In this document: positions 1,589 to 58,053 of the stretch, one piece after another
Position numbering within the stretch: the stretch's first letter is position 1
How the letters are laid out: each line of letters begins with the position of its first letter
Made by a program: the position numbers and the translations under genes
Assembly (NCBI GenBank): GCA_947598485.1
Contig: CANQFJ010000002.1
Span: 12,065-76,064 of the forward strand
Length of the DNA: 64,000 nucleotides
DNA from: an uncultured Bacilli bacterium
Lineage (GTDB): Bacteria > Bacillota_I > Bacilli_A > RF39 > UBA660
Direction of reading: 5' to 3'
The notes under the pieces: generated by a model
What the model was told of the DNA's origin: nothing
Seen by the model: the letters and a program-made list of their open reading frames with translations, nothing else
Database searches by the model: none

Positions 1589-2374
1589 ATGATATCGTGG
1601 TATGTAAATTTAGCTAATCCAATTCAATCTTTTTTGGCAGGGATACTAACTTTTGCCATAACATCTTTAGGAGCAGGAATTGTTGTTTTCTTTAAAAAAG
1701 TTGATAAAAATATTTTGGCTATGATGCTATCTTTATCTGCAGGTATAATGTTAGCAGCAAGTTTCTTTTCGTTAATTAATCCCGCTTTAAGTGGGGCAGA
1801 AAGTCTTGGACTTAATCCCTGGCTTGTCGTAGCTATTGGCTTTATTTTTGGAGGACTTTTCTTAATCCTAAGTGATAAATTAGTTTCTAAGCATGTAGAG
1901 GATAATAACAATACTAAAAGATTAATTTTACTTGTTAGCTCTATTGTATTACATAATATTCCTGAAGGCTTAGCAATAGGCGTTGCCTTTGGCTCTATTA
2001 AATATGGTTTAGACGGCGTAACATTAGCTTCAGCCGTAATGCTTGCGGTGGGAATTGGTATTCAAAATTTTCCTGAGGGAGCTGCAATTAGCTTACCTTT
2101 AAGAGGAGCAGGATATTCAAGACTAAAAGCTTTCCTTATAGGAGCTTTAAGTGGGATTGTTGAACCAATATCTAGTTTAATAGGAGCCATATTAGTTTTA
2201 AATGTCCGTAATTCTCTTCCATATTTATTAGCCTTTGCCGGAGGAGCTATGATCTTTGTGGTTATCTCAGAAATCATTCCCGAAAGTCAAAATAGTGAGC
2301 ATAAAAATTTAATGACTTTCTTAGCTTTAATGGGATTTGTTATTATGATGGTCTTAGATGTGGCACTTGGTTGA
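1589..2374 (+). CDS. ZIP-family divalent metal (zinc) transporter, ZupT/GufA-like
   Basis: Eight predicted TM helices. The ZIP signatures HNIPEGLAIGVAF and QNFPEGAAISLPL are present. The ATG at 1589 follows GGGTGA, and the GTG at 1580 is an alternative start. Confidence 0.85.
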   Translation: MISWYVNLANPIQSFLAGILTFAITSLGAGIVVFFKKVDKNILAMMLSLSAGIMLAASFFSLINPALSGAESLGLNPWLVVAIGFIFGGLFLILSDKLVSKHVEDNNNTKRLILLVSSIVLHNIPEGLAIGVAFGSIKYGLDGVTLASAVMLAVGIGIQNFPEGAAISLPLRGAGYSRLKAFLIGALSGIVEPISSLIGAILVLNVRNSLPYLLAFAGGAMIFVVISEIIPESQNSEHKNLMTFLALMGFVIMMVLDVALG

Positions 2375-2461
2375 CAAAAAAATACAAAATATTGTAAAGC
2401 TTTCTGCTTTTATACAAATAAAATGATATAATTATATAAGAGTAGGAAAGGAAGGTGTTAT

Positions 2462-4405
2462 ATGAAACGTAAATTATTATTACTATCTATAGCATGCTTC
2501 CTTTTTTTTAATTATGTAGATGTTTCGGCGAAAACTATTGTTAAGATTATTGTCCCTTATACAGGTGTAAGACTTAGGGAAGAGCCGTCAACAAGTTCTC
2601 GCTCTATTATAGATCGTATTTCTGAAAATGCGGTATATGAATTAGTCGATGAAGAACTATATAATAAATCAGATTCATGTTCTAAGGGTTGGAACAAAGT
2701 TTATTATAGTGGTCATAATATAGGTTATATCTGTTCTAATTATACAAAGGAATTTTCCCGAGTTGAGTATGATGAAAACGCTGCAGCTAGCTGTGAATCG
2801 GAACTAAAAATTAAGGGTTTTCCTGATAGCTATATCAAAGACTTATGTGACTTAAAAGCAATCCATCCGAATTGGACTTTTACTCCTGATTTTAATAATT
2901 TAGATTGGAATACTTCTATAACCGAACAAGAATATGACCGTAAAGCTTTAATTCAATCATATAATGAGGACACGCAAGGTCTTCTTGATACAGAGTATTT
3001 ATCTTATAATTACTTAACTGATACCTTTATTGTAAAAGAAGGAAGTAATTGGTATAATGCCAGTCATGATGCTATAGCTTACTTTTTAGATCCAAGAAAT
3101 TTCTTTAATGAAAAAGAAATATTTATCTTTCAAAAATTATCATTTGATGAAGTAACCCAAAAACAAGAAACCGTGGAAAGTATTTTAGATGGTACTGATA
3201 TTAAAGAAAAAAGCTCAGTTATTTACGATGCTGGACGTACTTATAATGTAAGTCCTATTTACCTTGCCAGTAGAATTAGACTAGAGACAACAGGAAATTA
3301 TACTAATTATTCTATTAAGGGGACAGCATATGGCAATTATCCTCATATATATAACGCTTATAATATTGGAGCATATACTGGTGCTGCCGATGGTATTAAA
3401 TGGGCTGCCGGTAATATGGGACATGGAACTCCTTGGACAACTCTTGATGCGGCTATTTATGGAGGAGCTAGCTATATCGCAGCTAACTATATAGGCCAAG
3501 GTCAAGATACTACCTATTTTCAAAAGTTTAATACATCTTCTTATTCTAACTATGCCACTCATACTCATCAATATCAAACTAATATTCAAGGCCCTGCAAG
3601 CGAGGCCGTACCTACTTACAATTCTTATGCTATTAATAATTTGTTAGAAACAGCATTTGACTTTGTAATTCCTATTTATGCAAATATGCCAGAAACTGCT
3701 TCTCCAATGCCTACTTATGGTAATCCTAATAATCATTTAAAAAGTATAACTATAAATGATAAAGAATTGCCAGGATTTAAACATGACACTTTCGTTTATG
3801 ACTATTATGTTGCAAAAGGCACTGTCTCTATAAAGATAGATGGGGCTATTATTAACAAGAATACTAAGCTTGAAGGCACTGGAACTATTAATTTGACTGG
3901 TGAAAAAACTCCTGTAGTACTTACTGTAACAGCGCAAAACCAAAAGGTCCAAACATATACTATTAACGTTATAAGGACAGATGGCATAGATATGAGTGTT
4001 GATGATATTTTAAATAGTATGTCAGCTCCCGTAACGGGGGATATGCTAATTTACTCCGCGGGAATAACTATTGATCAATTAAGAAATGAAGTTAATAAAG
4101 TATCTGCTACCGCAAGTGTAGTTGTTGATGCTAAAAATGCTATGACCCTTTCGACCGGTGATACCATAACTATTGCTAATGGAAGCGATAAGAAAACATT
4201 CAATGTTACAATAAAAGGCGATATAAGTGGGGATGGTAATATCGATATTCAAGATTTATTAAAAGTTCAAAAAAGCATTTTAGGATATACCGATTTGGCA
4301 GGACCATACTTTAAAGCCGCTGATACTAATCAAGATGGACTTGTTAATGTTACTGACTTATTAAGAGTTCAAAAGCATATATTAGGATATATAACTATTC
4401 AATAG
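2462..4405 (+). CDS. Secreted cell-wall hydrolase: SH3b domain, LytD-like GH73 N-acetylglucosaminidase, an Ig/cadherin-like beta-sandwich, and a C-terminal type-I dockerin
   Basis: Signal peptide. The SH3b-like region is KTIVKIIVPYTGVRLREEPS...GWNKVYYSGHNIGYICSNY. GH73 motifs are YFLDPRNFF...IFIFQ, IYLASRIRLETTGN (catalytic Glu) and YFQKFN. Two dockerin calcium-binding segments are DISGDGNIDIQDLLKVQKSILG and ADTNQDGLVNVTDLLRVQKHILG. The RBS AGGAAAGGAAGG precedes the ATG. Confidence 0.8.
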   Translation: MKRKLLLLSIACFLFFNYVDVSAKTIVKIIVPYTGVRLREEPSTSSRSIIDRISENAVYELVDEELYNKSDSCSKGWNKVYYSGHNIGYICSNYTKEFSRVEYDENAAASCESELKIKGFPDSYIKDLCDLKAIHPNWTFTPDFNNLDWNTSITEQEYDRKALIQSYNEDTQGLLDTEYLSYNYLTDTFIVKEGSNWYNASHDAIAYFLDPRNFFNEKEIFIFQKLSFDEVTQKQETVESILDGTDIKEKSSVIYDAGRTYNVSPIYLASRIRLETTGNYTNYSIKGTAYGNYPHIYNAYNIGAYTGAADGIKWAAGNMGHGTPWTTLDAAIYGGASYIAANYIGQGQDTTYFQKFNTSSYSNYATHTHQYQTNIQGPASEAVPTYNSYAINNLLETAFDFVIPIYANMPETASPMPTYGNPNNHLKSITINDKELPGFKHDTFVYDYYVAKGTVSIKIDGAIINKNTKLEGTGTINLTGEKTPVVLTVTAQNQKVQTYTINVIRTDGIDMSVDDILNSMSAPVTGDMLIYSAGITIDQLRNEVNKVSATASVVVDAKNAMTLSTGDTITIANGSDKKTFNVTIKGDISGDGNIDIQDLLKVQKSILGYTDLAGPYFKAADTNQDGLVNVTDLLRVQKHILGYITIQ

Positions 4406-4419
4406 AAAAGAGATGAAAT

Positions 4420-5994
4420 ATGAAGAAAGTAAAATTAATATTATTTACGCTCCTAAGTTGTTTACTATTTTCTGGTACTGCTTATGCTGCAACAGCAAAT
4501 ATTAAGGTATCTGCAACAGCATCACAAGTAATTATTGGTAATAACGTAACAGTTTATGTGACGATTTCTTCAGCATCTCCATTAGGCGCCTGGGAATATG
4601 GTCTTAACTATAATTCAAGTGTTTTTAGATTAGTATCTTCATCAGATGGTCTTCATGTAGCAGGATATGTTAGTAATAATACAACTAAGTCAATGACCTT
4701 TACTTATACTTTTACCGCTGTAGCAAAAGGATCTAGTACTTTTTCCGTAGGATCTGCTAATGTAGTAGGGTTTGATGAAAGTATTATGACTTTAAATCCA
4801 AGTTCTGTTACTGTAAATACTATAACTTATAATGAATACCAAGATAGTTTATCAAAGAATAATAATTTAGCGTCTTTAAAAGTAGATGGAGCTGATTTAG
4901 AACCGGAATTTAATAGAGATACTTTAGAATATAATGTTAAAGTATCTGAGGATACTAAAGAAATTAATATTGCCGCTACGCCGGAAGATAGTACTGCTTC
5001 CGTAAGTGGAATAGGACCTCAAAGTGTATCTCCCGGTAATAATACTTTTGAAATATATGTTGTAGCTCAAAATGGTAGTGAAAAAGTTTATAAAATTAAT
5101 GTTGAAGTAATCGATAAAAACCCTATAGAGGTTGAGTATGAAAATAAAAAGTATACAGTCGTAAAGATTAGAGATAATTTAGTTGCTCCAAAAGGATTTA
5201 AAGAATCAACTATAAATATCGAAGAATTTGAAATACCAGCTTATCGCAGCGATATAATGGATGTTGTAGTAATAGGCCTTAAAGATGAAGATGGTAAAAT
5301 AGTAATGTTTACTTATGAAGATGGCAAATATGATAAATATTTAGAAATAAATTTAGGTAATATAACTATTAGACCTCTTGAAATGAAAGAAAAGCTTGAT
5401 GACTATACACTTTCGTCATTAAAGATAAATAATATTGAGATAGAGTGCCTTCAAAAAACTAATGAAGATCGTTATAAATATGTTTATGGTGTTAATGTAG
5501 AAACTAATGAAGAAGGGCTATACACTGTAGATACCAAAGATAACACTATTATGAAGTTTGATAAAGAAGAAAGTACAGAAATAGCGGAACAAACTAAATT
5601 ATTATTGTATATCGCTTCTGCTTTTGCAGGTACGACATTTGTAAGCTTAATAGTTATTCTTTGTCTTCTAAGTAAAAAGAATAAAAACAAAGAACCCGAA
5701 AAGAAAGTAAGCAAACAAAATAAAAAAGAAGAAGTACAAGAAAAAACTATATGTCCTAAATGTCACCAAGAATATGATACTAATGAAGAAAGATGCCCAT
5801 ATTGTGCCTTAAAAGAAGAAGCAAATAAGCAAAAAGAAGATAAAAAATTAGCTAAAACTGCGAAAATAAGCAAAGATAATTTACCTTCCGAAGAAGAAAT
5901 AGAAAAAGCTGATGAGCAAGCCGATGAAGTATATGATATCTTCGAAGATGAGCATAAGCACAAAAAGAAGAAAAAAGACAAAAAAGTCAAATAA
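4420..5994 (+). CDS. Membrane-anchored cohesin-like scaffold protein: signal peptide, cohesin-like domain, cadherin-like domain, TM helix, and a cytoplasmic Zn-ribbon plus Lys/Glu-rich tail
   Basis: The N-terminal domain IKVSATASQVIIGNNVTVYVTISSASPLGAWEYGLNYNSSVFRLVS follows the cohesin pattern (GDTVxVPV...YDPxVLE). The single TM helix is LLLYIASAFAGTTFVSLIVILCLL. The tail has CPKCHQEY...CPYC followed by a KKEDKK-rich stretch. Confidence 0.6.
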   Translation: MKKVKLILFTLLSCLLFSGTAYAATANIKVSATASQVIIGNNVTVYVTISSASPLGAWEYGLNYNSSVFRLVSSSDGLHVAGYVSNNTTKSMTFTYTFTAVAKGSSTFSVGSANVVGFDESIMTLNPSSVTVNTITYNEYQDSLSKNNNLASLKVDGADLEPEFNRDTLEYNVKVSEDTKEINIAATPEDSTASVSGIGPQSVSPGNNTFEIYVVAQNGSEKVYKINVEVIDKNPIEVEYENKKYTVVKIRDNLVAPKGFKESTINIEEFEIPAYRSDIMDVVVIGLKDEDGKIVMFTYEDGKYDKYLEINLGNITIRPLEMKEKLDDYTLSSLKINNIEIECLQKTNEDRYKYVYGVNVETNEEGLYTVDTKDNTIMKFDKEESTEIAEQTKLLLYIASAFAGTTFVSLIVILCLLSKKNKNKEPEKKVSKQNKKEEVQEKTICPKCHQEYDTNEERCPYCALKEEANKQKEDKKLAKTAKISKDNLPSEEEIEKADEQADEVYDIFEDEHKHKKKKKDKKVK

Positions 5995-6000
5995 AGAAAA

Positions 6001-6029
6001 TTGACATTTAAAATATCTTTATGTTATAT
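6001..6029 (+). promoter_or_regulatory. Sigma-70-like promoter (TTGACA, 17 nt, TATATT) in an intergenic region; no annotated + strand gene lies downstream
   Basis: The -35 hexamer TTGACA is at 6001-6006. A 17-nt spacer follows, then TATATT at 6024-6029. A terminator hairpin sits about 90 nt downstream. Confidence 0.3.
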
Positions 6030-6117
6030 TTTCTTTACCGGAAGTAGAAATACTTTGTCAGGTCAATAACTGATGATTGTTAAAATTTATAAATTATATC
6101 TTCTCAGTTAGGTTATA

Positions 6118-6137
6118 GGAAGCGTAGGCTTCCTTTT
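6118..6137. terminator. Intrinsic terminator hairpin (GGAAGC-GTAG-GCTTCC followed by TTTT) lying between two convergent genes; probably works in both directions
   Basis: A perfect 6-bp GC-rich stem is followed by a T-run on the + strand. It sits between the + gene ending at 5994 and the - gene ending at 6139. Confidence 0.55.
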
Positions 6138-6138
6138 A

Positions 6139-6849
6139 CTATGGCAAAAAAAGCTTAACTGTTACAAAGTCTAGCTCATGAATATTATTTTGGTTAAATT
6201 TGCGATGAATAAAATTAGCTATCATATCTGCACTCTGAATACCATAATGAAGTTTAGAATTATATTTTTTTACTCTTAATATTAAGGAAGACTTAAGAAG
6301 AGGCTTATGCATAATAAAGTAGTCATAGTTTTTCATACCATGTACAAGTTCTTTAAAGATACTATCATATAAATTATAGTAGCCATTACTTTTAGCATTA
6401 TTCTCATCTATTTTAATATTTACTCTAAGAGTTAGTAAGCTATCTATAGCTTTATTTTTAATGGCATAGCTAACAATTTCTTTTACAATTCTTTTTTGCG
6501 CATATTCACAAAATCTTGCTCGAGAAAGTTTATTATTTAGAATTCTTTTAAATATTTTTTGATTATTAATAAGTACTGCATAAGATTTTTGACTCTTTAA
6601 TAGATTAATAATTCTTCTGCGACTAGCATTAGTAAGTCTTGATGTTGCTTTTATTTCAGGACAATCATTATTACAATTCTTTTTACTTGAACAGTATTTA
6701 CATTTAATACTATTTATTATACTTTTATATCTAATGATAAAGTTATTATATTCTTCTGCTGAGTAAAAAAATAATCCAGCATATACAAATGTGCCTTCGT
6801 TTGCATTTAATACTCCTGAATCATCCATATAAATAAATAATTCATTCAT
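6139..6849 (-). CDS. DUF3800-family protein; it is the only substantial minus-strand gene in the window
   Basis: An N-terminal IYMDDSG motif (a DES-like motif) and a C-terminal GIQSADMIANF (QxAD motif) are the two hallmarks of DUF3800. A cysteine-rich segment CKYCSSKKNCNNDCPE is also present. On the minus strand a strong RBS GGAGGT lies 5 nt before the ATG. Confidence 0.7.
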   Translation of the reverse strand: MNELFIYMDDSGVLNANEGTFVYAGLFFYSAEEYNNFIIRYKSIINSIKCKYCSSKKNCNNDCPEIKATSRLTNASRRRIINLLKSQKSYAVLINNQKIFKRILNNKLSRARFCEYAQKRIVKEIVSYAIKNKAIDSLLTLRVNIKIDENNAKSNGYYNLYDSIFKELVHGMKNYDYFIMHKPLLKSSLILRVKKYNSKLHYGIQSADMIANFIHRKFNQNNIHELDFVTVKLFLP

Positions 6850-6952
6850 TATGTACCTCCATATTTATTTATACCCGATTAATAACCAATTTCCTTTTTA
6901 TTTTTAAAATATTTTTCTTATTTTGGATAATAGTATAGTCTATTTATTTAGA

Positions 6953-6981
6953 TTGAACTATTATTTCATCTTTGATATAAT
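6953..6981 (+). promoter_or_regulatory. Near-consensus sigma-70 promoter (TTGAAC, 17 nt, TATAAT)
   Basis: TTGAAC is at 6953-6958, followed by a 17-nt spacer and TATAAT at 6976-6981. A GC-rich hairpin starts 10 nt downstream. Confidence 0.45.
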
Positions 6982-6990
6982 GTAGATATG

Positions 6991-7032
6991 GAAGTGGCCT
7001 CGCCGTCATCGGGGAGGTCACTTCTTTTTTTA
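6991..7032 (+). terminator. GC-rich intrinsic terminator or attenuator hairpin in the leader of the polysaccharide locus
   Basis: The sequence is GAAGTGGCCTCGCCGTCATCGGGGAGGTCACTTC followed by TTTTTTTT. It forms an 11-bp stem with one G-U pair and an extended inner stem. It has the highest GC content of any segment in an otherwise AT-rich region. Confidence 0.6.
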
Positions 7033-7083
7033 TTTGTTGTCTATAAAAACTCTAAAAGTAAAATTAATATAAACATCTTATTA

Positions 7084-7113
7084 TTGTTAAATCTTCTTAT
7101 TATGGGTTATAAT
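7084..7113 (+). promoter_or_regulatory. Putative promoter of the tagO operon (TTGTTA, 18 nt, TATAAT)
   Basis: The hexamers are at 7084-7089 and 7108-7113, about 17 nt upstream of the AGGAG RBS of the gene starting at 7130. Confidence 0.35.
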
Positions 7114-7129
7114 ACTAATAGGAGTTATA

Positions 7130-8191
7130 ATGAATTTTGTTATTAATAATCACAATATATTAGAAATATTAATTGTAACTTATTTAGTTAGTTTTATCTT
7201 AGTATTTTTATCTAAAAGACTTGCTATTTATGTTGGTGCTATGGACATTCCTAACGCTAGAAAAATTCATAAGCATCCTATGCCAAGACTTGGCGGTATA
7301 GCTATTTATGGTGGCTTTTTATTTGGTTATATGGCCTATGGTGAAGTTACTACACAAATGCTTTCTATTTTAATAGCTTCATTTATATTAGTTGTATTAG
7401 GCATTTTAGATGATATTAAACCAATTAGGGCTAAATATAAATTCTTAGTTCATCTTGTGGTAGCCTCGATTGTTGTTTTTTATGGCCGATTATTCTTTCA
7501 AAATATTACTTTATTAGGACTTAATTTATACTTTCCAATTTTAGCAGGACAAATAATATCAGTTTTATTTATTGTTTCTGCTATAAATGCTATTAATTTA
7601 ATTGATGGTTTAGATGGACTTTGTGCTGGGGTAAGTAGCATTTATTTTGCCACTATAGCTGTTATAGCCTTTATAATGGGTAATACTTCAGGCCTTGATG
7701 TAATTTTGTGTTTAATAATGCTTGGCTCAACTTTAGGATTTTTAACACATAATTTTCCCCCTGCCAAAGTATTCATGGGCGACTGTGGTAGTACCTTCTT
7801 AGGTTTTATGATATCTATTATAGCTTTATTAGGATTTAAAGTGGCTACTATTACATCTTTAGTAGTGCCATTATTAATTTTAGCAATTCCAATATTTGAT
7901 ACATTATTTGCTATAATAAGAAGACTTATTAAACATCAAAGCATAGGAGAACCTGATAAAGAACATTTGCATCATCAACTTCTTAGAATGAAGTTCTCAC
8001 CAAGAAAAAGCTTATTTATAATCTATTTTATCAGTATGCTTTTCTCTTTAGTATCAATATTCTATGCAATAGGAAATAATAGTAAGTTAGCTATAGGTAT
8101 ATATATTGTGTTAATGATCTTATTAATTATTATTGTTGCTAAGACTAATATCTTATTTGAACATAAGAAAAAGAAGAAAAAGGAATTATAA
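7130..8191 (+). CDS. tagO: Undecaprenyl-phosphate N-acetylhexosamine-1-phosphate transferase (TagO/WecA, MraY-like GT4 family)
   Basis: Polytopic membrane protein with the MraY/WecA motifs PRLGGIAI, NAINLIDGLDGL and FMGDCGSTFLGF. It has an AGGAG RBS. Confidence 0.85.
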   Translation: MNFVINNHNILEILIVTYLVSFILVFLSKRLAIYVGAMDIPNARKIHKHPMPRLGGIAIYGGFLFGYMAYGEVTTQMLSILIASFILVVLGILDDIKPIRAKYKFLVHLVVASIVVFYGRLFFQNITLLGLNLYFPILAGQIISVLFIVSAINAINLIDGLDGLCAGVSSIYFATIAVIAFIMGNTSGLDVILCLIMLGSTLGFLTHNFPPAKVFMGDCGSTFLGFMISIIALLGFKVATITSLVVPLLILAIPIFDTLFAIIRRLIKHQSIGEPDKEHLHHQLLRMKFSPRKSLFIIYFISMLFSLVSIFYAIGNNSKLAIGIYIVLMILLIIIVAKTNILFEHKKKKKKEL

Positions 8192-8958: not shown

Positions 8959-9444
8959 ATGTTAACTGCAAAGGAAATTGCCGAATATTTTCTTGCCAAA
9001 GATCCTGAAAGAAAATTATTTAATTATAATGTTGTTTCATATAATGGCCGAAAATTTTACGAAGGTAACGCTAGAATAAATAAATATTTATTTTTAGCTC
9101 AAGTAGTACACTTAGCTAAATATGACTCAAAATTGTTTCAAGACGATTTTGCCTTTTATGATAATGGTCCTGTAATTGAAACTATAATGAATTCTTATTC
9201 TAATTTATGCGGTAATGCTACTAATGGAAATATTAATAAAAAAGAAAAAGATTTTTTGGATAAAATATATTTTTCTTTGGAAAATGCTACGTATGAAGAA
9301 CTAATTGATATCACTCATGAAGATCCAGAATGGATCAGATTAAACAAAAATACAAAATATTCTCCTGTTATGAAAATTGAAAATAATATTATGGAATATA
9401 AAAGAAGGTACAAAGGACTAATTGAAGCTTTAAAGCTAGTATAA
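8959..9444 (+). CDS. Panacea-domain (DUF4065, SocA-like) protein
   Basis: NKYLFLAQVVHLAKYDSKLFQDDFAFYDNGPVIETIMNSY matches the core of DUF4065 (KLxKLLYxAQ...LF...FxAW..GPV). It is a 161-aa cytoplasmic protein. Confidence 0.5.
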   Translation: MLTAKEIAEYFLAKDPERKLFNYNVVSYNGRKFYEGNARINKYLFLAQVVHLAKYDSKLFQDDFAFYDNGPVIETIMNSYSNLCGNATNGNINKKEKDFLDKIYFSLENATYEELIDITHEDPEWIRLNKNTKYSPVMKIENNIMEYKRRYKGLIEALKLV

Positions 9445-9926
9445 AAGCCTAAGTACCTTTTTTTAATCTCCTGAAATAAAAAAACCTAGGGCTTCAAAAA
9501 TTTCCTAGGCACTACTTGATACATGAATATCCAATGTTTATAAATTAAATCAATAATTTTTTTATTTATTGTAGCTTAATGTTATCCAAAAAGATAGCAC
9601 TACCCGAGCTTACAAGTACTAATATCGCATTACTTGTTAATCTTCCCAGTTGGGGTTTTGGCAAGACGTTATTACGAAAGCGAGATAGATTATGAAAATA
9701 AATCTTATTACTGTTAGTAATTATAATAATGATTATTTACATTCTTAAAAGAATTGTTGATATCACCAAAAAAATACTAGGTCTTTAAACCATAGCACCA
9801 ACCAAAAGGCAAATGCTATCTTTAGTAGAATAACACTACATTTATAGTATATGATATTTTACTCTAAATTACAATTGACATTTTACAATAGTGGGTAATT
9901 TTTTGGTAAATGTCATTGCCTTATTA

Positions 9927-10020
9927 AAAGTCCTTTGAATTTCGTGAAAAAGTAGTTAAAAAGTGCTTCGAATTTCGTGAAAAAATAGTCAAAAAGTCCT
10001 TTGAATTTCGTGAAATTTAT
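9927..10020 (+). repeat. Three tandem direct repeats of 31-34 bp (core GTCCTTTGAATTTCGTGAAA) upstream of the AAA+ ATPase gene
   Basis: Units begin near 9927, 9962 and 9995. A single copy lies at 8915-8947. Confidence 0.7.
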
Positions 10021-10068
10021 TGATTTCAAGCTAAAAAAATGGTATCCTTATTCATAAGGAGAATACCT

Positions 10069-11379
10069 ATGAAAAGAAAAATTTATAACGATTTATTAAA
10101 ATGGAAAGAAGAAATTCATGCTAAACCATTAATTATGCTTGGTGTAAGACAATGTGGTAAAACTCATATTATTAATGAGTTTTGTCAAAATGAATATCAA
10201 AATTATATTTATGTTAATTTAATTAAAAGAAATGATATTATTGATTTATATGATTCTGTTTTATCTTCGGATGAAAAATTTAATAGATTAAAGGTATTAT
10301 TAGACTTTGATATTGAAAAGGATAATACTATTTTATTTATTGATGAAATTCAAGAATCAGAAAAAATAATTACTGAACTTAAGTATTTTTGGGAGGATCA
10401 TCCAAAATTACGTGTTATTTGCGCTGGTTCGCTTCTCGGTGTTAGGCTAAAAAGATTTAAATCTTCTTTTCCTGTTGGAAAAATCACTTTTTCTTATTTA
10501 TATCCTATGGATTTTGAAGAATTTCTTTGGGCAAATAACGAAGAACTTTTAATTGACGTTATTAAAGATGGTTATGATAATAATAGAGCTTTAGGCAAAG
10601 CACTACATAATAAGGCTTTAAAATATTACTATATGTATTTAATGTCTGGGGGAATGCCTGAAAGCGTTAAAAAAATTATTGCTACTAAAGGAGATTATAT
10701 TAAATACGATAATAGTGTTTTAAATGACATATTATCTTCTTATTTTGATGATATGAGAAGATATGTTACTAATGATGCCGAATCTTTAAAAGTACAAAGA
10801 ATTTATAATTCTTTACCATCGCAATTAAATAATTTATCTAGTAAATTCCAATATTCTTTAGTTGATAAAGATGCTCGGTCTAGAGATTATGCAACAGCTT
10901 TAGATTGGCTTGAAGCTAGTAATTTAGTTTTAAGGGCTAAAATGGCAAAAAGGGCGGAAATTCCTTTGGAAGGTTTTATAGATGTAGATACATTCAAACT
11001 TTTCTTAAGTGATGTTGGAATATTAAACACTTTATTAAAAATATCTCCTATGGATATTATTAAAGATAATATTTCTTTGTATAAAGGAATTATAACCGAA
11101 AATTTTGTTGCTAATCAGTTAGTATGTAATAATTTTTCTTTATATTATTGGAAAAATGATGCCACAGCGGAAATTGATTTTCTTTTATATACTAGAGATG
11201 GTATTATTCCTTTAGAAGTTAAAGCCAGAGAAAATACGCAATCTAAAAGTTTAAATATTTATAGGGAAATATATCATCCTAAATATTCAATAAGATTAAG
11301 TACTAAAGATTTCGCTTATGATCCTAAAAAACAAATTAAATCTGTTCCTTTATATGCTGTTTTTCTTATTAAACCATAA
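10069..11379 (+). CDS. AAA+ ATPase of the COG1373 family (AAA_14 domain plus DUF4143); the DUF4143 C-terminus carries a PD-(D/E)XK-like motif
   Basis: The Walker A motif is GVRQCGKTH and the Walker B motif is ILFIDEIQ. The C-terminal motif EIDFLLY...IPLEVKA fits a D...E-x-K nuclease signature. The RBS AAGGAG lies 7 nt before the ATG at 10069; the ATG at 10039 given in the ORF track is unlikely to be the real start. Confidence 0.7.
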   Translation: MKRKIYNDLLKWKEEIHAKPLIMLGVRQCGKTHIINEFCQNEYQNYIYVNLIKRNDIIDLYDSVLSSDEKFNRLKVLLDFDIEKDNTILFIDEIQESEKIITELKYFWEDHPKLRVICAGSLLGVRLKRFKSSFPVGKITFSYLYPMDFEEFLWANNEELLIDVIKDGYDNNRALGKALHNKALKYYYMYLMSGGMPESVKKIIATKGDYIKYDNSVLNDILSSYFDDMRRYVTNDAESLKVQRIYNSLPSQLNNLSSKFQYSLVDKDARSRDYATALDWLEASNLVLRAKMAKRAEIPLEGFIDVDTFKLFLSDVGILNTLLKISPMDIIKDNISLYKGIITENFVANQLVCNNFSLYYWKNDATAEIDFLLYTRDGIIPLEVKARENTQSKSLNIYREIYHPKYSIRLSTKDFAYDPKKQIKSVPLYAVFLIKP

Positions 11380-11421: not shown

Positions 11422-11536
11422 GGCTAGAAACCTAGGATTTTTGGCCGTTATAATTTAAAATTGTTTCTAAAATATTAATTATATGGTATATTTATATTGT
11501 GATTGTATAGGAAAAATATAATAGAGGAAGATGCAA

Positions 11537-30166: not shown

Positions 30167-33145
30167 ATGAAAAAGAAAAACGCTATAATGATTGCTGACA
30201 CTAGACCAGCATTAATGGGTAATATCTTAGTACAATTAAATGATACAAATAAAGGCTTATTTGATGAAGCATTAATTTATTATGATACTATAACTGAAAA
30301 AGATAAAGAAGTAATGAGTAGTATAATGCCATGTCGTTTTATTAAGTTTGATTATGAGTTGCCAAATGAGGTAAAGGCTTTACCAGCTTTTGAAAAATTC
30401 TCATCTCTTATGTTTGCTCGTTATTATATGTTTGATATGCTTGATGAATATGAAACTGTAACATGGATTGATACTGATGTTTTAATAACGGGAAGCTTAC
30501 AAGATGTTATAGAAAAAGCTAAAATAAATGGAATGGCTGCGAATTTTGAAGACCCCATTAATAAATCTTATAAAACTACTGATATTGTTAAAACTAGCTT
30601 CTCAATGCCAATTAATAATTATGACATGAATCGCTATAATATGAGTTCAGGATTAATTACGATTGCAGATACTCTTGAAAATTATGAGAAAATGACTAAG
30701 TGGTGTTTTGAAAAAACAATAGAATATGCTGAGTATTTAAGCTTACCGGATCAAGGAATACTAAATATATTAATACAAGAATTTAATATTGATGTGGCTA
30801 GTGTCGGAGAAAATGGTGCTTATTGTTTTTATCCTAGTTATAATAGAGATGCTAGTAAAGCTAAAATTGTCCATGCATGGGGTGCACGTAAGTTTTGGAA
30901 AAGTTGGTATTTATATAATAAATTTCCAGATTGGAAAAAGTATTATGAAAAATGGGTAAGTATGGGCGGTAGCGATTTTTTTGGTGAAATTAAGCCAGAT
31001 ATTTCTGTAGTAATTCCAACTTATAATACCAACGTTAATTACTTTAAAGATGTTCTTGAAGATTTACTTGTTAATCAAGTTCAAGAACATGGCTTTCAAT
31101 ATGATAATTTTGAAGTTATATTGGTTGTGGATGGAGATAAGAACGAAGAACTAATTGAATTACTAAAAAAATATAATGATCCAAGAATCGTGTTAAAAAT
31201 CAGTAAAGAAAGATTAGGCATTGCCAAAAGTTTAAACACCGGAATTAAGCTTGCTAAAGCTGATTATATAGCTAGAATAGATGATGATGATAGAATAGCT
31301 CCTGATAGATTGTTTAAGCAATATAAATATTTGAATACCCATAAAAATATTGATTTAGTAACTTCAAACTTTGCTTATTTCGGTGACATGAATGAAGAAA
31401 GAGTTTCTTTTGAAGGAGAAATGTGTAGGGCCTGGGGTATTTTTACTTGCCCATTTAATCATCCAACAATAATGGTAAGAAAAAGTTTTTTGCTTGATAA
31501 TGATTTGCTCTATGATGAATCAAGGTCTCATGTAGAAGATTGGGAACTATGGCAAAGGTGTTTTAAAAAAGGCATGAAAGTTGGAAGTATACCAGAAGTA
31601 TTATATTATCATCGTTGGCATAATAATAGTGCTGGACAAAATCAAAAAACAATTGATATGATGCGTGAACTTGTAAGATTAAATTTTGCTGAGTTAAATG
31701 TTGATTTAACTGAAGAAGATTTAAAAATAGTACCTATTTGGCAAGGAAAAGTCACTGAAAATCAATACAAAAAATTAGAGAGTATATTTAATAAAGCTCT
31801 TAAGAATAATGCTGAGTTAAAAGTTTATGATCAAAGATGTTTGGAAAAAGTCTTTGACTTAAGACTTTATGAAGCGAAGACAGGAACAGTTAAGGATATT
31901 GTTATAAAGAAAGATAAGGTTATACCTAACGCTCAAAATCAATCCAAAACTATTAAACAAAAAATTTTAGGACCTATTTATCGTCCATTTAAAAGGGTTT
32001 TATATAATATTATGGCTGAAGCCGTAAATGACAGTGCTCAATCGATAAGTACTGAGAGCAAGAAAAATAATAAAGAGATTCGCGAAAATTTAGAAAGGCG
32101 AGTTGAAAGTTTTAAAAATCAATTAAATTATTTACATGATCAATTATATGACTTTGAGATGCGGAGCACCTTTATAAGAGAATTTAGTGAAGATAATTTA
32201 TATAATCAAAAAAAATTAATTTTAATAGGAACTAGTGAACACTCTAATATTGGTGATGCTGCTATAACAAGGGGAGAATATGAGTTTATTCGTAAGTATT
32301 TTAGTGATTATAAATTAATAGAGGTTTCAACATATCAATTTAATGATTATCTTCCTTATTTAGAAAACATTATTAATGATGATGATGTTATATTCCTACA
32401 CGGAGGAGGTAATTTAGGAAACAAATATTTAACTGAAGAAAATGTTCGAAGAGTAGTAATAGATACTTTCAAAAATAATAAAATAGTTATATTACCGCAA
32501 ACAATACATTTTGATAATGATGAAGAATTAAATAAGAGTAAAGAGATATATAATCGTCATAATAATTTAATCTTATTTACCCGTGGTGAAAAAAGTTTAG
32601 AATTTGCTAAGAAGAATTTCCCTAAAGTTAAAATCTATAAAGCTATAGATATGGCTTTAAATATGCATATAGACTATAATTATGAAAGAAATGGAATATT
32701 ATGCTGTATTAGGGATTTAAGTGATGAAAGCATTTTAACTAAAGAAGAATATGAAAAAATATTTAGTATTGTTAAAGCTCATGATGCTAACTATGACTTC
32801 ACTAATAATTTAAATACAGAAGATATTAGAAAACAAATACGTAATCATGTAGTGTATAATCAATTAAAATTATTTGCTAAACATAAATTAGTAATAACAG
32901 ATCGTTTACATGGATTAATCTTTTGCTTAATTACTAATACTCCTTGTATAGTAATAAGAAACCATAATCATAAGATTAATGAATTCATAGAAATGCTTAA
33001 AGATAATAAAAATATTTGTTTTATTGATAAGAATATAGATTTATTGGAAAGTAAGATAACAGAACTATTAAATAGTGTACCAATCAATACTGATTATAGG
33101 GATAAATTCGTGGAAGTCGCTAAAATAATAAAAGAAAATAAGTAG
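30167..33145 (+). CDS. Three-domain glycopolymer enzyme (992 aa): an N-terminal GT-A (GT8-like) domain, a central GT2 domain and a C-terminal polysaccharide pyruvyl transferase domain (CsaB/WcaK family)
   Basis: The N-terminal domain has WIDTDVL (DxD). The GT2 domain has ISVVIPTYNT...RIDDDD. The C-terminal domain has IGTSEHSNIGDAAI...VITDRLHGLIF, typical of PS_pyruv_trans. Confidence 0.6.
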   Translation: MKKKNAIMIADTRPALMGNILVQLNDTNKGLFDEALIYYDTITEKDKEVMSSIMPCRFIKFDYELPNEVKALPAFEKFSSLMFARYYMFDMLDEYETVTWIDTDVLITGSLQDVIEKAKINGMAANFEDPINKSYKTTDIVKTSFSMPINNYDMNRYNMSSGLITIADTLENYEKMTKWCFEKTIEYAEYLSLPDQGILNILIQEFNIDVASVGENGAYCFYPSYNRDASKAKIVHAWGARKFWKSWYLYNKFPDWKKYYEKWVSMGGSDFFGEIKPDISVVIPTYNTNVNYFKDVLEDLLVNQVQEHGFQYDNFEVILVVDGDKNEELIELLKKYNDPRIVLKISKERLGIAKSLNTGIKLAKADYIARIDDDDRIAPDRLFKQYKYLNTHKNIDLVTSNFAYFGDMNEERVSFEGEMCRAWGIFTCPFNHPTIMVRKSFLLDNDLLYDESRSHVEDWELWQRCFKKGMKVGSIPEVLYYHRWHNNSAGQNQKTIDMMRELVRLNFAELNVDLTEEDLKIVPIWQGKVTENQYKKLESIFNKALKNNAELKVYDQRCLEKVFDLRLYEAKTGTVKDIVIKKDKVIPNAQNQSKTIKQKILGPIYRPFKRVLYNIMAEAVNDSAQSISTESKKNNKEIRENLERRVESFKNQLNYLHDQLYDFEMRSTFIREFSEDNLYNQKKLILIGTSEHSNIGDAAITRGEYEFIRKYFSDYKLIEVSTYQFNDYLPYLENIINDDDVIFLHGGGNLGNKYLTEENVRRVVIDTFKNNKIVILPQTIHFDNDEELNKSKEIYNRHNNLILFTRGEKSLEFAKKNFPKVKIYKAIDMALNMHIDYNYERNGILCCIRDLSDESILTKEEYEKIFSIVKAHDANYDFTNNLNTEDIRKQIRNHVVYNQLKLFAKHKLVITDRLHGLIFCLITNTPCIVIRNHNHKINEFIEMLKDNKNICFIDKNIDLLESKITELLNSVPINTDYRDKFVEVAKIIKENK

Positions 33146-35162: not shown

Positions 35163-37619
35163 ATGAAGAAGATTAATTATTTATACACATTTCTATCTAT
35201 ACTACCTTTAATAGATTTAATAACTAGTATAACAAGTAGATATTTTCCTAATTTTATTTCTATTGGAGCTATCTTAAAGGGATTAATTTTATTAATAGGA
35301 GTTTTTTATATCTTCTTTTATAGTGCTAGTAAATATAAGAAGATGTCCATAATATATATTACTATTTTGGTTTTTTATGTTCTGGGATATTTTATTTTTA
35401 AAAGTGATTTAATAGATAAAAGTTATTTTTTTAGCGAACTAAATTATTTGATTAAACTTTCTTTCTTTCCAACCATGTTTGTTGTCTTTCTAAATTTATT
35501 TGATGATTTTGGCTTCGACATTAAGAAAATAGAAAAAGTAATGATTATAAATATTATATTTTATATTTTGTTTATAATTGGTCCTACAATATTGAATTTT
35601 AACTTTTCTTCTTACTCAAGCAATGCGTATTTTGGATCTGTTGGGTGGTTTTATTCCGCTAATGAGATATCTAGCATTTTATTATTTTTATTTCCATTTA
35701 TATATAAATTCATGTCTAAAGATAAATTGATATTGATAATATTATTTCTTTTAGCTTTATATATGATAAGCTTTATTGGCACTAAAGTTACTTTGTTTGG
35801 GATTATCATCATGAGCATAATATTAATGCTTATGGTTTTATTTAAAAGCAAAAATAATTTAAATCGAATAATAGCTATAATTTTAACCTTTATAACTATA
35901 GGTTTCATGCATAATAATTACGCATTTTTAAATATGAAAGCATCAATAGGCTATGAAAATAATCAAAATGCAGTTATTGATGATAACCCAGATATAGTTG
36001 ATAAGGACTTGGAAGAAGAATTAAATGATATCAAAGAAGAAAAGGAAAGCTATAAGAAATGGCAAAAGTTTAGTTTATCATTATTAAGCGATAGAGATAT
36101 ATATGCCATTTATACGTATAGACTTTATCGTAAAAATTTTGAACCGAGCTATTTTCTATTTGGCATGGGAATCTCAAATACATCAAGAATTAATGATAAG
36201 CAAGTAGCCAAACTTATTGAAATAGATTTTTTAGATATTTTCTTCCATTTTGGCTTGTTAGCTTTACTTATCACTATTTATCCCTTTATTTATACAATAA
36301 TATGCATTGTTAAATCAAAAACATTTAATCATAAAATATTACTATTTAGTTTAACGGTCCTTTTAATGATGGGAGTTTCATCTTTAGCAGGACATGTTCT
36401 TTTAGCTCCTGCTGTTAGTATTTATTTATGCCTTTATTTAATTTGTATTATAAATGAGACACATAGCTTTAAAAGAAAAGATATTAAAAAAAATAAAGTG
36501 ACGATTTTAGCTATGCATTTAGGTTATGGTGGCGTAGAAAATGCCATTTGTAACATTGCTAGTAATTTAGTAGATAATTATGATGTAGAAATTATTTCTT
36601 TGTATAAAAATAAAGAAAAAATTCCCTTTAAATTGGCTAAAAAAGTTAAAGTTACGTATCTATTAAATACAATATCTAATCGTCAAGAATTTAAAAATGC
36701 TTTAAAGGATTTTGATTTAACAAACCTTTTAAAAGAGGGATTTAAAGCTTTAAAGATAATAAGTAAAAAAGACAATTTAATTAAAAAAGCGATAATTAAC
36801 TGTGATGCTAAAATTATTATCTCTACAAGAATTAAATATAGTAATTTATTAAATGAATACGGAAATGACTTGGCTATAAAAATTCATCAAGAACATACAT
36901 ATAGTGTTGGTGATAAGTACATAAATCATTTAAATAAATTAGATAATATAAATTATATAATGCCTGTGAGCAATGTATTATATAACGAATATAAAAATAA
37001 AGTTACTATACCTTTAAAATACATTCCTCTTGCATTAAATTATTATCCTAGTGATGATGAAATATCTAAATTAAATAATTATAATTTGATTGCTATTGGA
37101 AGATTAGAACCTGAAAAGGGGTTTGATGACTTGCTGGATGTTGTATATCATTTGACTAAAGAGAATAAAAAAATAAAATTAAACATATTTGGTGATGGAT
37201 CACTAAGAGAAAGCTTACAAGATAAAATTAATCATCTTAAACTTGAAAATAATATTACACTATGGGGCTTTAAAGAATACGATTTTATAAAAAAGTACTT
37301 AATTGATTCAGCATTATATGTTATGACATCTTATGAAGAATCATTTGGCTTAGTTGTGCTTGAGGCTATGAGCTATGGCGTACCTTGTGTTACTTATGCA
37401 AGTGCTAAAGGGGTAAAATCTATAGTAAATAATAAAAATGGCTTTATAATTAATAAAAGGGATAATAAAAAAATGGCTAAAGTTATCCTTGATTATTTTA
37501 ATTTAAAATCTGCGGATAAAAGAAAATACGGTACTGAAGCAAGAAAAATAAGCTATGAGTATAGTAATGAAGCAATCAAAGAGCAGTGGTTAGATTTTTT
37601 GGATAGTATTAATGAATAA
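35163..37619 (+). CDS. Fusion protein: an N-terminal Wzy/O-antigen-ligase-like polytopic membrane domain and a C-terminal GT4 (glycosyl transferase group 1) domain
   Basis: Residues 1-430 contain about ten TM helices with a large loop. Residues 440-818 form a GT4 domain with FGLVVLEAMSYGVPCV. Confidence 0.55.
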   Translation: MKKINYLYTFLSILPLIDLITSITSRYFPNFISIGAILKGLILLIGVFYIFFYSASKYKKMSIIYITILVFYVLGYFIFKSDLIDKSYFFSELNYLIKLSFFPTMFVVFLNLFDDFGFDIKKIEKVMIINIIFYILFIIGPTILNFNFSSYSSNAYFGSVGWFYSANEISSILLFLFPFIYKFMSKDKLILIILFLLALYMISFIGTKVTLFGIIIMSIILMLMVLFKSKNNLNRIIAIILTFITIGFMHNNYAFLNMKASIGYENNQNAVIDDNPDIVDKDLEEELNDIKEEKESYKKWQKFSLSLLSDRDIYAIYTYRLYRKNFEPSYFLFGMGISNTSRINDKQVAKLIEIDFLDIFFHFGLLALLITIYPFIYTIICIVKSKTFNHKILLFSLTVLLMMGVSSLAGHVLLAPAVSIYLCLYLICIINETHSFKRKDIKKNKVTILAMHLGYGGVENAICNIASNLVDNYDVEIISLYKNKEKIPFKLAKKVKVTYLLNTISNRQEFKNALKDFDLTNLLKEGFKALKIISKKDNLIKKAIINCDAKIIISTRIKYSNLLNEYGNDLAIKIHQEHTYSVGDKYINHLNKLDNINYIMPVSNVLYNEYKNKVTIPLKYIPLALNYYPSDDEISKLNNYNLIAIGRLEPEKGFDDLLDVVYHLTKENKKIKLNIFGDGSLRESLQDKINHLKLENNITLWGFKEYDFIKKYLIDSALYVMTSYEESFGLVVLEAMSYGVPCVTYASAKGVKSIVNNKNGFIINKRDNKKMAKVILDYFNLKSADKRKYGTEARKISYEYSNEAIKEQWLDFLDSINE

Positions 37620-58037: not shown

Positions 58038-58053
58038 AAAGAGGTATGAAGTT

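Follow-up and report, generated by a model that had tools for sequence, protein, structure and literature searches.

The locus consists of two adjacent genes, A and B, which, like all of the features described here, lie on the forward (+) strand and are numbered within the window, the whole 64-kb stretch of DNA that was analyzed. Gene A (2462..4405) encodes a protein of 647 residues that is predicted to be secreted and to contain an SH3 domain, a GH73-type N-acetylglucosaminidase, a cadherin-like module, a β domain and a dockerin. Its N terminus, as read from the sequence, carries a positive charge followed by a hydrophobic core and a VSA cleavage motif, and is a putative signal peptide (residues 1–23, 2462..2530, with YVDVSA before the cleavage site and KT after it). 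The SH3_3-like domain (residues 35–95, 2564..2746), a putative wall-binding module, matches PF08239 with an E value of 0.0018 and 18.9 bits, which is under the Pfam cut-off, and the same family is annotated in many homologues of A. The catalytic region (residues 188–383, 3023..3610) is homologous to the solved GH73 glucosaminidases Staphylococcus aureus Atl (6fxo, 2e-10), AtlE (4pi7, 1e-9) and SagB (6u0o, 2e-8), and Glu275 (3284–3286), in the motif RLETTG, aligns with the Glu of the LLE-TGNG motif, the catalytic Glu of Atl and AtlE, and is the predicted catalytic residue. The NCBIfam SagB model also matches A at 3.8e-12, far below its cut-off, and the Pfam Glucosaminidase model PF01832 gave no match at E ≤ 1. 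The description of A as a GH73/LytD-like hydrolase in the initial annotation is thus borne out by the solved structures and the SagB model. Glu275 is at least 95% conserved in 63 homologues of A and at least 90% conserved in 150 representatives.

Close to the C terminus of A is a type I dockerin (residues 585–641, 4214..4384) composed of two repeats, each a Ca2+ loop plus a helix, at nucleotides 4220–4255 and 4322–4357; the two helices are near-identical (DLL[KR]VQK.ILGY). The domain spans the complete Pfam Dockerin_1 profile (PF00404, positions 1–57 of 57) at E = 3.7e-10 and 40.3 bits against a cut-off of 22.9, and is matched by the solved dockerins 2vn5_B, 1ohz_B and 3ul4_B (E 7e-5 to 1e-4), in agreement with the canonical duplicated dockerin that had been proposed from a first reading of the sequence. 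Both Ca2+ loops, together with the catalytic Glu, are conserved across the 63 homologues. Among 150 diverse relatives of A, a dockerin is present at the end of 149 and a cohesin was found within none, and a six-frame regular-expression scan detected no other dockerin-type Ca2+ loops in the window. The retention of the dockerin in nearly all of these relatives would be difficult to account for if it had no conserved partner.

Gene B (4420..5994) encodes a type I membrane anchor of 524 residues with a signal peptide, a cohesin, a cadherin-like module, two β domains, a transmembrane helix and a cytoplasmic tail. The cohesin module (residues 24–140, 4489..4839), which carries the family motif G[SA]WE[YM]xLNY, is assigned from profile matches and from an AF2 model with a pLDDT of 95.6. 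In a Foldseek search with this model, cohesins were the top 7 structural matches (E 1e-7 to 1e-5), the best being 2vo8 (E 1.3e-7, TM 0.70), 2w1n, 2jh2, 4dh2, 1qzn and 2xdh; TM-scores against cohesins were 0.6–0.7 with an rmsd of ~4 Å, and the modeled domain, at ~120 residues, is shorter than canonical cohesins (140–170 residues). Cohesins also made up 11 of the 12 PDB profile matches to this region. The Pfam Cohesin model (PF00963) did not match B itself at E ≤ 1, but three homologues that are 44–51% identical to it, P0115, P0049 and P0028, pass the cut-off of 24.1 with 31.4, 28.4 and 25.7 bits, respectively, over residues 28–117. The N-terminal cohesin of the initial annotation is therefore upheld by the predicted fold and through these homologues, but not by a Pfam score for B itself; in the model, the fold of the domain is that of a cohesin.

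The cadherin-like β-sandwich module of B (residues 151–229, 4870..5106) matches PF12733 at E = 2.2e-10 and 41.3 bits, and the corresponding module of A (residues 427–505, 3740..3976) matches the same family at E = 2.8e-4 and 21.7 bits, just under the cut-off of 24.2; the two modules align directly by BLASTP (29% identity, E = 5e-9), so that the Ig/cadherin-like module previously suggested to be common to both proteins is confirmed. Two all-β domains and a juxtamembrane helix follow (residues 237–395, 5128..5604; AF2 pLDDT 91.5) and are read as a stalk or spacer; this segment has no Pfam family, and its matches, to multi-domain stalks of the Ig, cadherin or S-layer type, were all weak and generic. 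As the initial annotation proposed, the second gene encodes a membrane protein, with a signal peptide and one transmembrane helix (residues 398–416, 5611..5667), located in a hydropathy scan and followed by a Lys-rich, positive-inside segment; a signal peptide, a single transmembrane helix (at about residues 390–425) and a Lys-rich tail are present in all 65 complete homologues of B. The cytoplasmic tail contains a CPKC...CPYC zinc-ribbon-like motif (residues 445–462, 5752..5805) with weak Pfam zinc-ribbon matches (E ~0.01), and no C..C...C..C motif was found in the tails of 67 other homologues. Within the family the tail varies from 8 to 161 residues in length, and its sequence is not conserved.

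The two genes are separated by a 14-nucleotide spacer (4406..4419, aaaagagatgaaat) with a purine-rich ribosome-binding site. A hairpin with a T-tract downstream of B (6117..6134) marks a probable operon end, but one such site in the interval 2300–7200, compared with 1.5 expected by chance, is weak support for a terminator. In species-level genomes with usable upstream sequence, a GH73-dockerin gene lies directly upstream of the cohesin gene at 65 of 65 loci, with a median spacer of 12 nucleotides (64 of the 65 between −17 and +17) and the Shine-Dalgarno sequence AGGAGG in most. The same gene order is found in three further homologue groups, and at all five of the distant loci, which range from 25 to 58% GC. 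Each of 67 genomes has a single cohesin locus, and no second dockerin or cohesin was found within 5 kb on either side of the pair or in the 64-kb window. No other neighboring gene was shared by more than 16 of 67 loci. Genes in the window include a TagO-like GT4, TagA, a TagGH-like ABC transporter, many glycosyltransferases and a PBP5-type carboxypeptidase, and LCP, DAP epimerase or FtsA genes are near the pair in other loci. A DUF3800 gene and toxin-antitoxin-like genes also lie near the pair. The hosts live in the gut or rumen and include non-fibrolytic Bacilli-type MAGs, and relatives of A with the SH3/cadherin-like/dockerin architecture occur in Clostridia and Lachnospiraceae MAGs. The conserved family to which the pair belongs is very large.

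The invariant adjacency of the two genes (65/65 and 5/5 loci) is the main reason for proposing that A and B bind each other. It could be argued instead that they are not partners, the cohesin-like sandwich of B binding a glycan or another protein, the dockerin of A binding a cohesin encoded elsewhere in the genome or simply stabilizing the enzyme through Ca2+, and the adjacency reflecting a shared envelope function. This would fit with the lack of a PF00963 match to B itself and with the appearance of CARDB, TRAP-β, complement C3 MG and CLIPPER domains in the fold search (E 1e-5 to 1e-4); orphan dockerins, for which no cohesin can be detected, have been described, in Ruminococcus albus among others (PMC4081043). 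Covariation of dockerin positions 10 and 11 with the cohesin, being no stronger than that with the GH73 catalytic domain, used as a control, reflects clade structure and not contact, which also fits this reading. However, genuine cohesins outrank the other folds in the structural search and dominate the profile matches, homologues of B pass the Pfam cut-off, the dockerin is kept in 149 of 150 relatives of A, and the dockerin and cohesin genes remain side by side at all 70 loci that could be tested while their surroundings change, so that independent functions for the two modules appear quite improbable. It should also be noted that GH73 domains occur in phage endolysins, and this, with the adjoining membrane-protein gene and the nearby DUF3800 and toxin-antitoxin-like genes, might suggest a lysis cassette of a prophage or mobile element; such an origin is effectively refuted by the predicted Sec signal peptides on both proteins, the large structured ectodomain of B, the lack of flanking phage structural or integrase genes, and the conservation of the pair as a single-copy chromosomal unit, amid varied housekeeping genes, in at least 70 genomes.

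We consider it probable that the two genes constitute an operon specifying a peptidoglycan N-acetylglucosaminidase that is tethered to the membrane. Both proteins would be exported through their Sec signal peptides, B being kept in the membrane by its one C-terminal transmembrane helix and projecting a stalk of three β-sandwich domains with the single cohesin at its far N-terminal tip. A, a GH73-type enzyme, would be soluble and would carry an SH3-like module for wall binding. Its C-terminal Ca2+-dependent dockerin would plug 1:1 into the cohesin, for which dockerin proteins encoded elsewhere in the genome may compete; since the helices of its two repeats are near-identical, either may engage, in a dual binding mode. 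With its dockerin held by a membrane protein, the enzyme would remain attached to the cell that makes it, with the stalk determining how far it sits from the membrane, and would most likely cleave the cell's own glycan strands in wall growth, turnover or daughter-cell separation. A housekeeping role is considered most likely on the basis of gene context and single-copy conservation.

The same complex could also act outward, as a minimal "lyticome" displayed on the surface and used as a weapon or for foraging, to lyse neighbors or harvest their peptidoglycan. The dockerin-bearing lysozymes and D,D-carboxypeptidases of rumen metagenomes have been interpreted in terms of attack and defense (PMC6487960), and the lyticome idea itself has been put forward (PMC6403190). 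The position of the cohesin at the membrane-distal tip of a ~370-residue ectodomain, the presence of a separate SH3-like wall-binding module in A and the gut or rumen origin of the hosts are in keeping with this, and at least one host contig is only 1.55 Mb, which may mean a small genome and a dependence on scavenging. On the other hand, a strictly single-copy pair that is near-universal in very divergent lineages and organized as a tight operon is typical of core envelope functions and not of variable antagonism loci; wall-biogenesis or division genes often adjoin it, no immunity-like gene is conserved beside it, and a stalk of three small domains would be unlikely to pass beyond a Gram-positive wall. 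An outward-directed function is therefore regarded as rather unlikely.

A further question is whether B serves chiefly as a regulator or latch, keeping A inactive or off the mature wall through the dockerin, and perhaps the cadherin-like modules, until release by, for example, Ca2+ or signals from the tail. Membrane partners commonly control autolysins, the partner in SagB-SpdC orienting the active site and setting product length; the homologous PF12733 modules could provide a second contact, and B has a cytoplasmic tail, with a zinc-ribbon-like motif in this genome. However, the tail is conserved in neither length nor sequence, and because the zinc ribbon is found in this genome alone, conserved signaling through the tail is unlikely. 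Control of A by B is a conjecture that would be compatible with anchoring and not exclusive of it; as the principal function of B it is improbable.

The proposed membrane retention of A would resemble that of SagB, one of its closest characterized relatives, which S. aureus holds at the membrane through SpdC, a partner that positions the glucosaminidase on glycan strands and offers a precedent for membrane scaffolding (bioRxiv 10.1101/2020.05.21.109470). The likeness is a functional analogy only: SagB has its own transmembrane helix and binds the polytopic CAAX-protease-like SpdC inside the membrane, whereas A would be attached outside the cell, by cohesin-dockerin interaction, to a stalk protein that crosses the membrane once and has no relationship to SpdC.

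The closest solved relatives of the B cohesin are from Clostridium perfringens (2jh2 in the profile search, E = 0.005; 2vo8, 2w1n and 2jh2 as the top three fold matches, E 1e-7 to 8e-7, 17–22% identity), and the comparison with this organism made in the initial annotation holds because its cohesins are the best profile match and the top three structural matches. The C. perfringens systems (GH84 NagJ and GH33 sialidase cohesins; 2jh2, 2o4e, 2w1n, 2vo8 and 2ozn) are likewise non-cellulosomal and involve enzymes that act on glycans other than those of plant walls. In C. perfringens, a secreted glycosidase or toxin carries the cohesin as an internal module, and the interaction links one enzyme with another, whereas the cohesin of the present pair is borne by a dedicated type I membrane protein that is not itself an enzyme, the enzyme with the dockerin is a peptidoglycan hydrolase and the genes form a strict 1:1 operon. 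With the anchoring of cellulosomes and amylosomes, the pair shares a canonical duplicated F-hand dockerin, a cohesin jelly-roll and a secreted glycoside hydrolase retained at the surface, but it has no multi-cohesin scaffoldin, CBM, or plant-polysaccharide or starch enzymes; it consists of one enzyme and one anchor, and its substrate would be bacterial peptidoglycan.

The idea of a cohesin-dockerin system for a GH73 enzyme is not wholly new. Fusions of a peptidoglycan-active module to a dockerin are known from ruminococcal cellulosomes, including a GH25 lysozyme of Ruminococcus champanellensis and the lysozymes and D,D-carboxypeptidases of rumen metagenomes (PMC6403190, PMC6487960), but these are GH25 and S11 enzymes, not GH73, they dock on cellulosomal scaffoldins that hold several enzymes, their discussion in the literature is as weapons, and no dedicated adjacent cohesin anchor is described for them. 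Single cohesins anchored by a transmembrane helix have been predicted in some Ruminococcus species (PMC13463774). A close parallel is Ruminococcus bicirculans, a noncellulolytic gut Firmicute for which Ze et al. (2015, PMC4611034), citing Wegmann et al. (2014), mention exactly one cohesin and one dockerin linked to a GH73 enzyme; no function or breadth is described there. Because relatives of A with the same architecture occur in Clostridia and Lachnospiraceae MAGs, the R. bicirculans association probably belongs to the same family. No description of the breadth of the operon or of its stalk-anchor architecture was found in the literature, and the pair is a real, uncharacterized variant of non-cellulosomal cohesin-dockerin use. 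Since the two-gene unit is kept in many uncultured gut Firmicutes, the "cellulosome" connector probably also serves to hold a cell-wall enzyme on the cell's own surface.

The open reading frames A (2462–4405) and B (4420–5994), both on the forward strand, encode proteins of 647 and 524 amino acids and are separated by a 14-nt spacer with a purine-rich ribosome-binding site inside it. As read from its sequence, A has an N-terminal signal peptide and no transmembrane helix; in Pfam searches it gives a weak SH3_3 match at residues 35–95 and a Cadherin-like match at residues 427–505, with a score (21.7 bits) that is slightly below the cut-off of 24.2. The catalytic region, at about residues 183–383, is homologous with the GH73 domains of known structure in Staphylococcus aureus Atl (6fxo, E = 2e-10), AtlE (4pi7, 1e-9), and SagB (6u0o, 2e-8), and it also matches the NCBIfam SagB model (E = 3.8e-12), with a score far under the cut-off of that model. 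The domain is divergent; the Pfam Glucosaminidase profile (PF01832) does not match A at E ≤ 1. The catalytic general acid of 6fxo and 4pi7, the Glu of LLE-TGNG, corresponds to Glu275 of A, which is part of the sequence RLETTG and is shared by at least 95% of 63 close homologues and 90% or more of a set of 150 diverse representatives. Gln370 and Tyr371, the latter being the Tyr of the YATD-like motif, are also at least 90% conserved in this set, across which Asn374 is kept but Asn373 is not, although the 63 close homologues have Asn373 in at least 95% of cases; the motif containing these residues is HQYQTN in A as compared with HQYATD in Atl, an Asn replacing the Asp. The homology with the three structures and the conservation of Glu275 support the GH73/LytD-like assignment made in the initial annotation, and A is predicted to be a GH73-type glucosaminidase that would cleave the GlcNAc-β-1,4-MurNAc bond.

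At the C terminus of A, residues 585–641 match Dockerin_1 (PF00404) over the whole profile (positions 1–57 of 57), and the score, 40.3 bits, is above the cut-off (22.9). Dockerins are recognized by a tandem pair of segments, each about 22 residues long, in which an EF-hand-like loop with Asp or Asn at positions 1, 3, 5, and 9 and Asp at position 12 is followed by a helix, and A has two such segments. The first Ca2+ loop (nucleotides 4220–4255) contains D587-S-D591-D595-D598 and the second (nucleotides 4322–4357) D621-N623-D625-N629-D632, residues that are at least 90% conserved in the 150 representatives. Both of the repeats quoted when a duplicated dockerin was originally proposed are thus located here, within a full-length match that exceeds the cut-off, and a six-frame scan of the 64-kb window found no dockerin motif besides these two. 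The helices of the two repeats are near-identical (DLL[KR]VQK.ILGY), and positions 10 and 11 vary in parallel in both repeats from clade to clade. Type I dockerins have a symmetric dual-binding mode, and these two properties fit with it.

The cohesin profile PF00963 (cut-off 24.1 bits) does not match B itself in Pfam at E ≤ 1, but it scores above the cut-off, over residues 28–117, with three homologues (P0115, 31.4 bits; P0049, 28.4 bits; P0028, 25.7 bits) that are 44–51% identical to B across about 80% of its length. When a profile of 38 B-type N-terminal domains was compared with the PDB, 11 of the 12 matches were cohesins, the best being that of Clostridium perfringens NagJ (2jh2, E = 0.005), with E values from 0.005 to 3 that are each marginal and matches that cover only the N-terminal half. 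The AlphaFold2 model based on the same alignment has a mean pLDDT of 95.6 and is all-β, with about 9–10 strands; it has the nine-stranded β jelly-roll, superposing on solved cohesins, by which the cohesin fold is defined. The top Foldseek match is the cohesin of a C. perfringens GH33 enzyme (2vo8, E = 1.3e-7, TM 0.70), and further matches are to cohesins of NagJ (2w1n and 2jh2), OlpC (4dh2), type II (1qzn), type III (5n5p), and an archaeal, non-cellulosomal protein (2xdh). The cohesin matches span types I, II, and III as well as non-cellulosomal forms, with E values of 1e-7 to 1e-4 and TM scores of 0.6–0.73, and the Ig-like folds TRAP-β, CARDB, C3 MG, and CLIPPER occur only lower in the list. 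The homologue scores, the profile matches, and the predicted fold together indicate that the N-terminal domain modeled here is a short (about 120 residues), divergent cohesin. The suggestion that it fits the cohesin pattern therefore fails for B itself with PF00963 but stands through its homologues and the predicted fold.

The remainder of B is consistent with a membrane anchor. Its only Pfam matches are to Cadherin-like (residues 151–229, 41.3 bits) and, weakly, to a zinc ribbon in the tail. The model of residues 143–396 (pLDDT 91.5) consists of three β domains in a chain with a juxtamembrane helix at the end, and its structural likeness is generic, to multi-domain surface, S-layer, or cadherin stalks. 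A single transmembrane helix (residues 398–416) is followed by a Lys-rich tail, and this topology is common to all 65 complete homologues, so that the description of the second gene product as a membrane protein is correct. The Ig/cadherin-like module said to be common to the two proteins is similarly confirmed, the modules of A (3740–3976) and B (4870–5106) being homologous (PF12733) with 29% identity and an E value of 5e-9; it could bring the two proteins into contact at a second site or be a spacer that both have. An alternative view of B as a lipoprotein, based on the sequence LLSC at residues 11–14, was rejected because this Cys is placed too close to the start of the signal peptide and homologues do not have it. 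The cytoplasmic tails of B-type proteins vary from 8 to 161 residues; that of B has a zinc-ribbon-like motif, CPKC...CPYC (residues 445–462; window 5752–5805, forward strand), and a C..C...C..C motif is absent from the tails of the 67 other homologues, among them the L008 protein (77% identity in the cohesin domain). The motif looks like a lineage-specific addition, and the idea that it is a conserved signaling element was discarded because it is confined to this genome among the homologues compared. In distant lineages, the PF12733 module is kept on both enzyme and anchor. At one locus with 55.7% GC on a 1.55-Mb contig (L075, 10001–14091), a long linker rich in Pro, Thr, and Ser precedes the SH3-like region of the enzyme, and the anchor has PT-rich interdomain linkers and an acidic tail; this other lineage has a version of the module rebuilt with flexible linkers.

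A scan for the cohesin motif, using one genome per species, identified 67 loci, one per assembly. The gene directly upstream of the cohesin gene encodes a GH73 region and a dockerin in 65 of 65 loci with usable upstream sequence, the other two being cut by contig ends, and the 5 kb to each side contained no second dockerin or cohesin. In the 65 pairs, the median length of the spacer is 12 nt; it is between −17 and +17 nt in 64 of them and usually contains AGGAGG. The other neighbors of the pair in the window recur in 16 (SNase), 16 (ZIP), 10 (TagO-like GT4), and none (TagA) of the 67 loci, and the genes downstream of the pair differ from one homologue group to another. An exhaustive search with A retrieved 1,363 representatives at 50% identity (E ≤ 1e-30); among the best 150, the dockerin is at the end of the protein in 149 and a cohesin is present within none. 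Five distant members, ranging from 25 to 58% GC and including one on a 1.55-Mb contig and one adjoining the spore-coat genes ylbD and ylbE, were examined. In all five, the enzyme gene is followed about 10–42 nt on by a gene whose product has an N terminus that matches the cohesin HMM (E values from 2e-8 to 3e-41) and, where complete, also a cadherin-like module and a C-terminal transmembrane helix. The relatives are labeled as Lachnospiraceae, Clostridiales, Clostridia, Bacilli, "Mycoplasma sp. CAG:472," and "Clostridium sp. CAG:609/628," and the operon is present in at least 70 genomes of low- and high-GC Firmicutes. The invariant adjacency, the presence of one locus per assembly, and the breadth of the relatives show that the two genes form a conserved single-copy unit that is widely spread in Firmicutes. 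It should be noted that about 10 loci (L016, L027, L028, L030, L032, L037, L038, L045, L057, and L067) belong to assemblies with the name "uncultured Muribaculaceae bacterium" (Bacteroidota), and the name of the assembly with L063 is "Agathobacter sp."; all have this Bacilli-type operon, with up to 53% identity (best segment) to the cohesin domain of the window, and the bin labels are probably wrong or the bins contaminated.

It is probable that A is tethered to B through a cohesin-dockerin interaction, as the initial annotation proposed for a peptidoglycan glucosaminidase and a membrane anchor; we infer the binding, its stoichiometry, the substrate, and the physiological role alike. Both proteins would be exported, B would be a type I membrane protein with one cohesin at the tip of a stalk of β domains, and the dockerin of A would bind this cohesin 1:1 in a Ca2+-dependent manner, thereby keeping the glucosaminidase at the surface of the cell that produces it. 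In an analysis of inter-protein covariation (MI with APC, 64 A-B pairs), dockerin position 10 of both repeats (residues 596 and 630 of A) was paired with residues 60 and 96 of B, in cohesin strands 3 and 6. However, the same dockerin columns covary equally with columns of the GH73 catalytic domain, used as a control; the signal is therefore regarded as phylogenetic and was set aside as a sign of contact. Residue 60 of B aligns with Phe40 of Clostridium thermocellum Coh2, which is probably core-facing.

In the non-cellulosomal complexes of C. perfringens, the cohesin is inside a secreted glycoside hydrolase or toxin and joins enzyme to enzyme. The analogy with these complexes, drawn from the outset, is apt because their cohesins are the closest solved relatives of that of B in both profile and fold, but the organization differs in that B has no catalytic domain and would serve an enzyme as its dedicated anchor in the membrane. 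Cellulosomes and amylosomes are characterized by a scaffoldin with multiple cohesins and/or a CBM, which integrates several dockerin-bearing polysaccharide-degrading enzymes, whereas B has one cohesin and no CBM, and a single dockerin occurs in the window, as at each of the other loci (±5 kb). The A-B pair is not a cellulosome or amylosome, and its enzyme is a predicted peptidoglycan hydrolase. The nearest functional analogue is SagB-SpdC of S. aureus, in which the membrane partner scaffolds a GH73 enzyme to cleave nascent glycan strands (bioRxiv 10.1101/2020.05.21.109470). SagB has its own N-terminal transmembrane helix and SpdC is a polytopic, CAAX-protease-like membrane protein, whereas A has a cleavable signal peptide in place of such a helix and B is single-pass and all-β, so that the likeness is purely one of analogy. 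A brief remark on Ruminococcus bicirculans by Ze et al. is a precedent for the association of GH73 with cohesin/dockerin (PMC4611034), dockerin-linked lysozymes and D,D-carboxypeptidases in rumen metagenomes have been interpreted in terms of attack or defense (PMC6487960), a "lyticome" has been suggested (PMC6403190), and transmembrane-anchored single cohesins have been predicted in some ruminococci (PMC13463774). In the literature searched, neither the conserved operon nor its breadth, the stalk-anchor architecture, or an experimental test is described. The pair is a variant of the non-cellulosomal use of cohesin and dockerin that was conceptually anticipated and whose GH73 association was briefly published before.

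The window has about 28% GC, almost all of its genes are on the forward strand, including every open reading frame of at least 150 codons between 12 and 64 kb, and each 2-kb bin from 1 to 64000 has a positive GC skew; the window is probably entirely on a leading strand. A very large cluster for wall-glycopolymer biosynthesis extends from 7130 to about 42760 and encodes a TagO-like GT4, TagA/WecG (8191), an ABC exporter (TagG/TagH-like genes at 11531 and 12359), a GHMP kinase, an NTP-transferase-HAD fusion, GtrII, an FkbH_N protein, an MBOAT, a radical SAM protein, a 992-residue GT8-GT2-pyruvyltransferase fusion (30167–33145), and an 818-residue fusion of an O-antigen-ligase-like protein and a GT1 (35163–37619). 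Between TagA and the TagG/TagH-like genes are a SocA/Panacea antitoxin-like gene (8959–9444) and an AAA_14/DUF4143/NERD ATPase gene (10039–11379), separated by about 600 nt (9445–10038) with no open reading frame of 60 or more codons; this may be an insertion in the cluster. A DUF3800 gene (6139–6849), the sole long minus-strand open reading frame thereabouts, is directly downstream of B, in a slot that looks like a variable islet and is perhaps related to toxin-antitoxin or defense functions. The same slot in CAG:609-type loci (L001–L003, 7426–9936) has HipA_C, HIRAN, and DUF3800 genes. Farther downstream are genes for a phosphoketolase (48168–50555), a PBP5-type D,D-carboxypeptidase (53747–54997), which confirms a link to peptidoglycan metabolism, and a protein with a Listeria-Bacteroides repeat (58027–59430). 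In other genomes, LCP, DAP epimerase, or FtsA adjoins the pair. This wall-biogenesis context argues for a housekeeping wall function rather than antagonism, a role for which the case is less secure than for the tethering. The idea of a prophage lysis cassette was dismissed, since the proteins have Sec signal peptides, the flanks have no phage structural or integrase genes, and the pair is chromosomal in at least 70 genomes. A further, rather doubtful proposal is that the operon is a widespread housekeeping use of cohesin and dockerin in Firmicutes, possibly older than their cellulosomal use, in which the rigid stalk would be a molecular ruler that holds the glucosaminidase at a fixed height, so that the cutting of glycan strands would be confined to one defined layer of the wall; the pair would then be a non-homologous equivalent of SagB-SpdC that releases or trims nascent peptidoglycan.

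Cohesin and dockerin are usually seen as the glue of the cellulosomes that degrade plant fiber, but there are many "orphan" cases in non-fibrolytic microbes, and the A-B operon provides a concrete candidate role for such pairs, the non-covalent tethering of an autolysin to the membrane. Should A and B turn out to be no more than a common autolysin and its anchor, the main benefit would be that thousands of "cadherin-like domain-containing" proteins could be annotated better. For protein engineering, the pair would be a naturally minimal and orthogonal 1:1 cohesin-dockerin system and, in studies of the cell wall, it would represent a new means by which little-known, uncultured gut lineages restrict where a peptidoglycan hydrolase acts.
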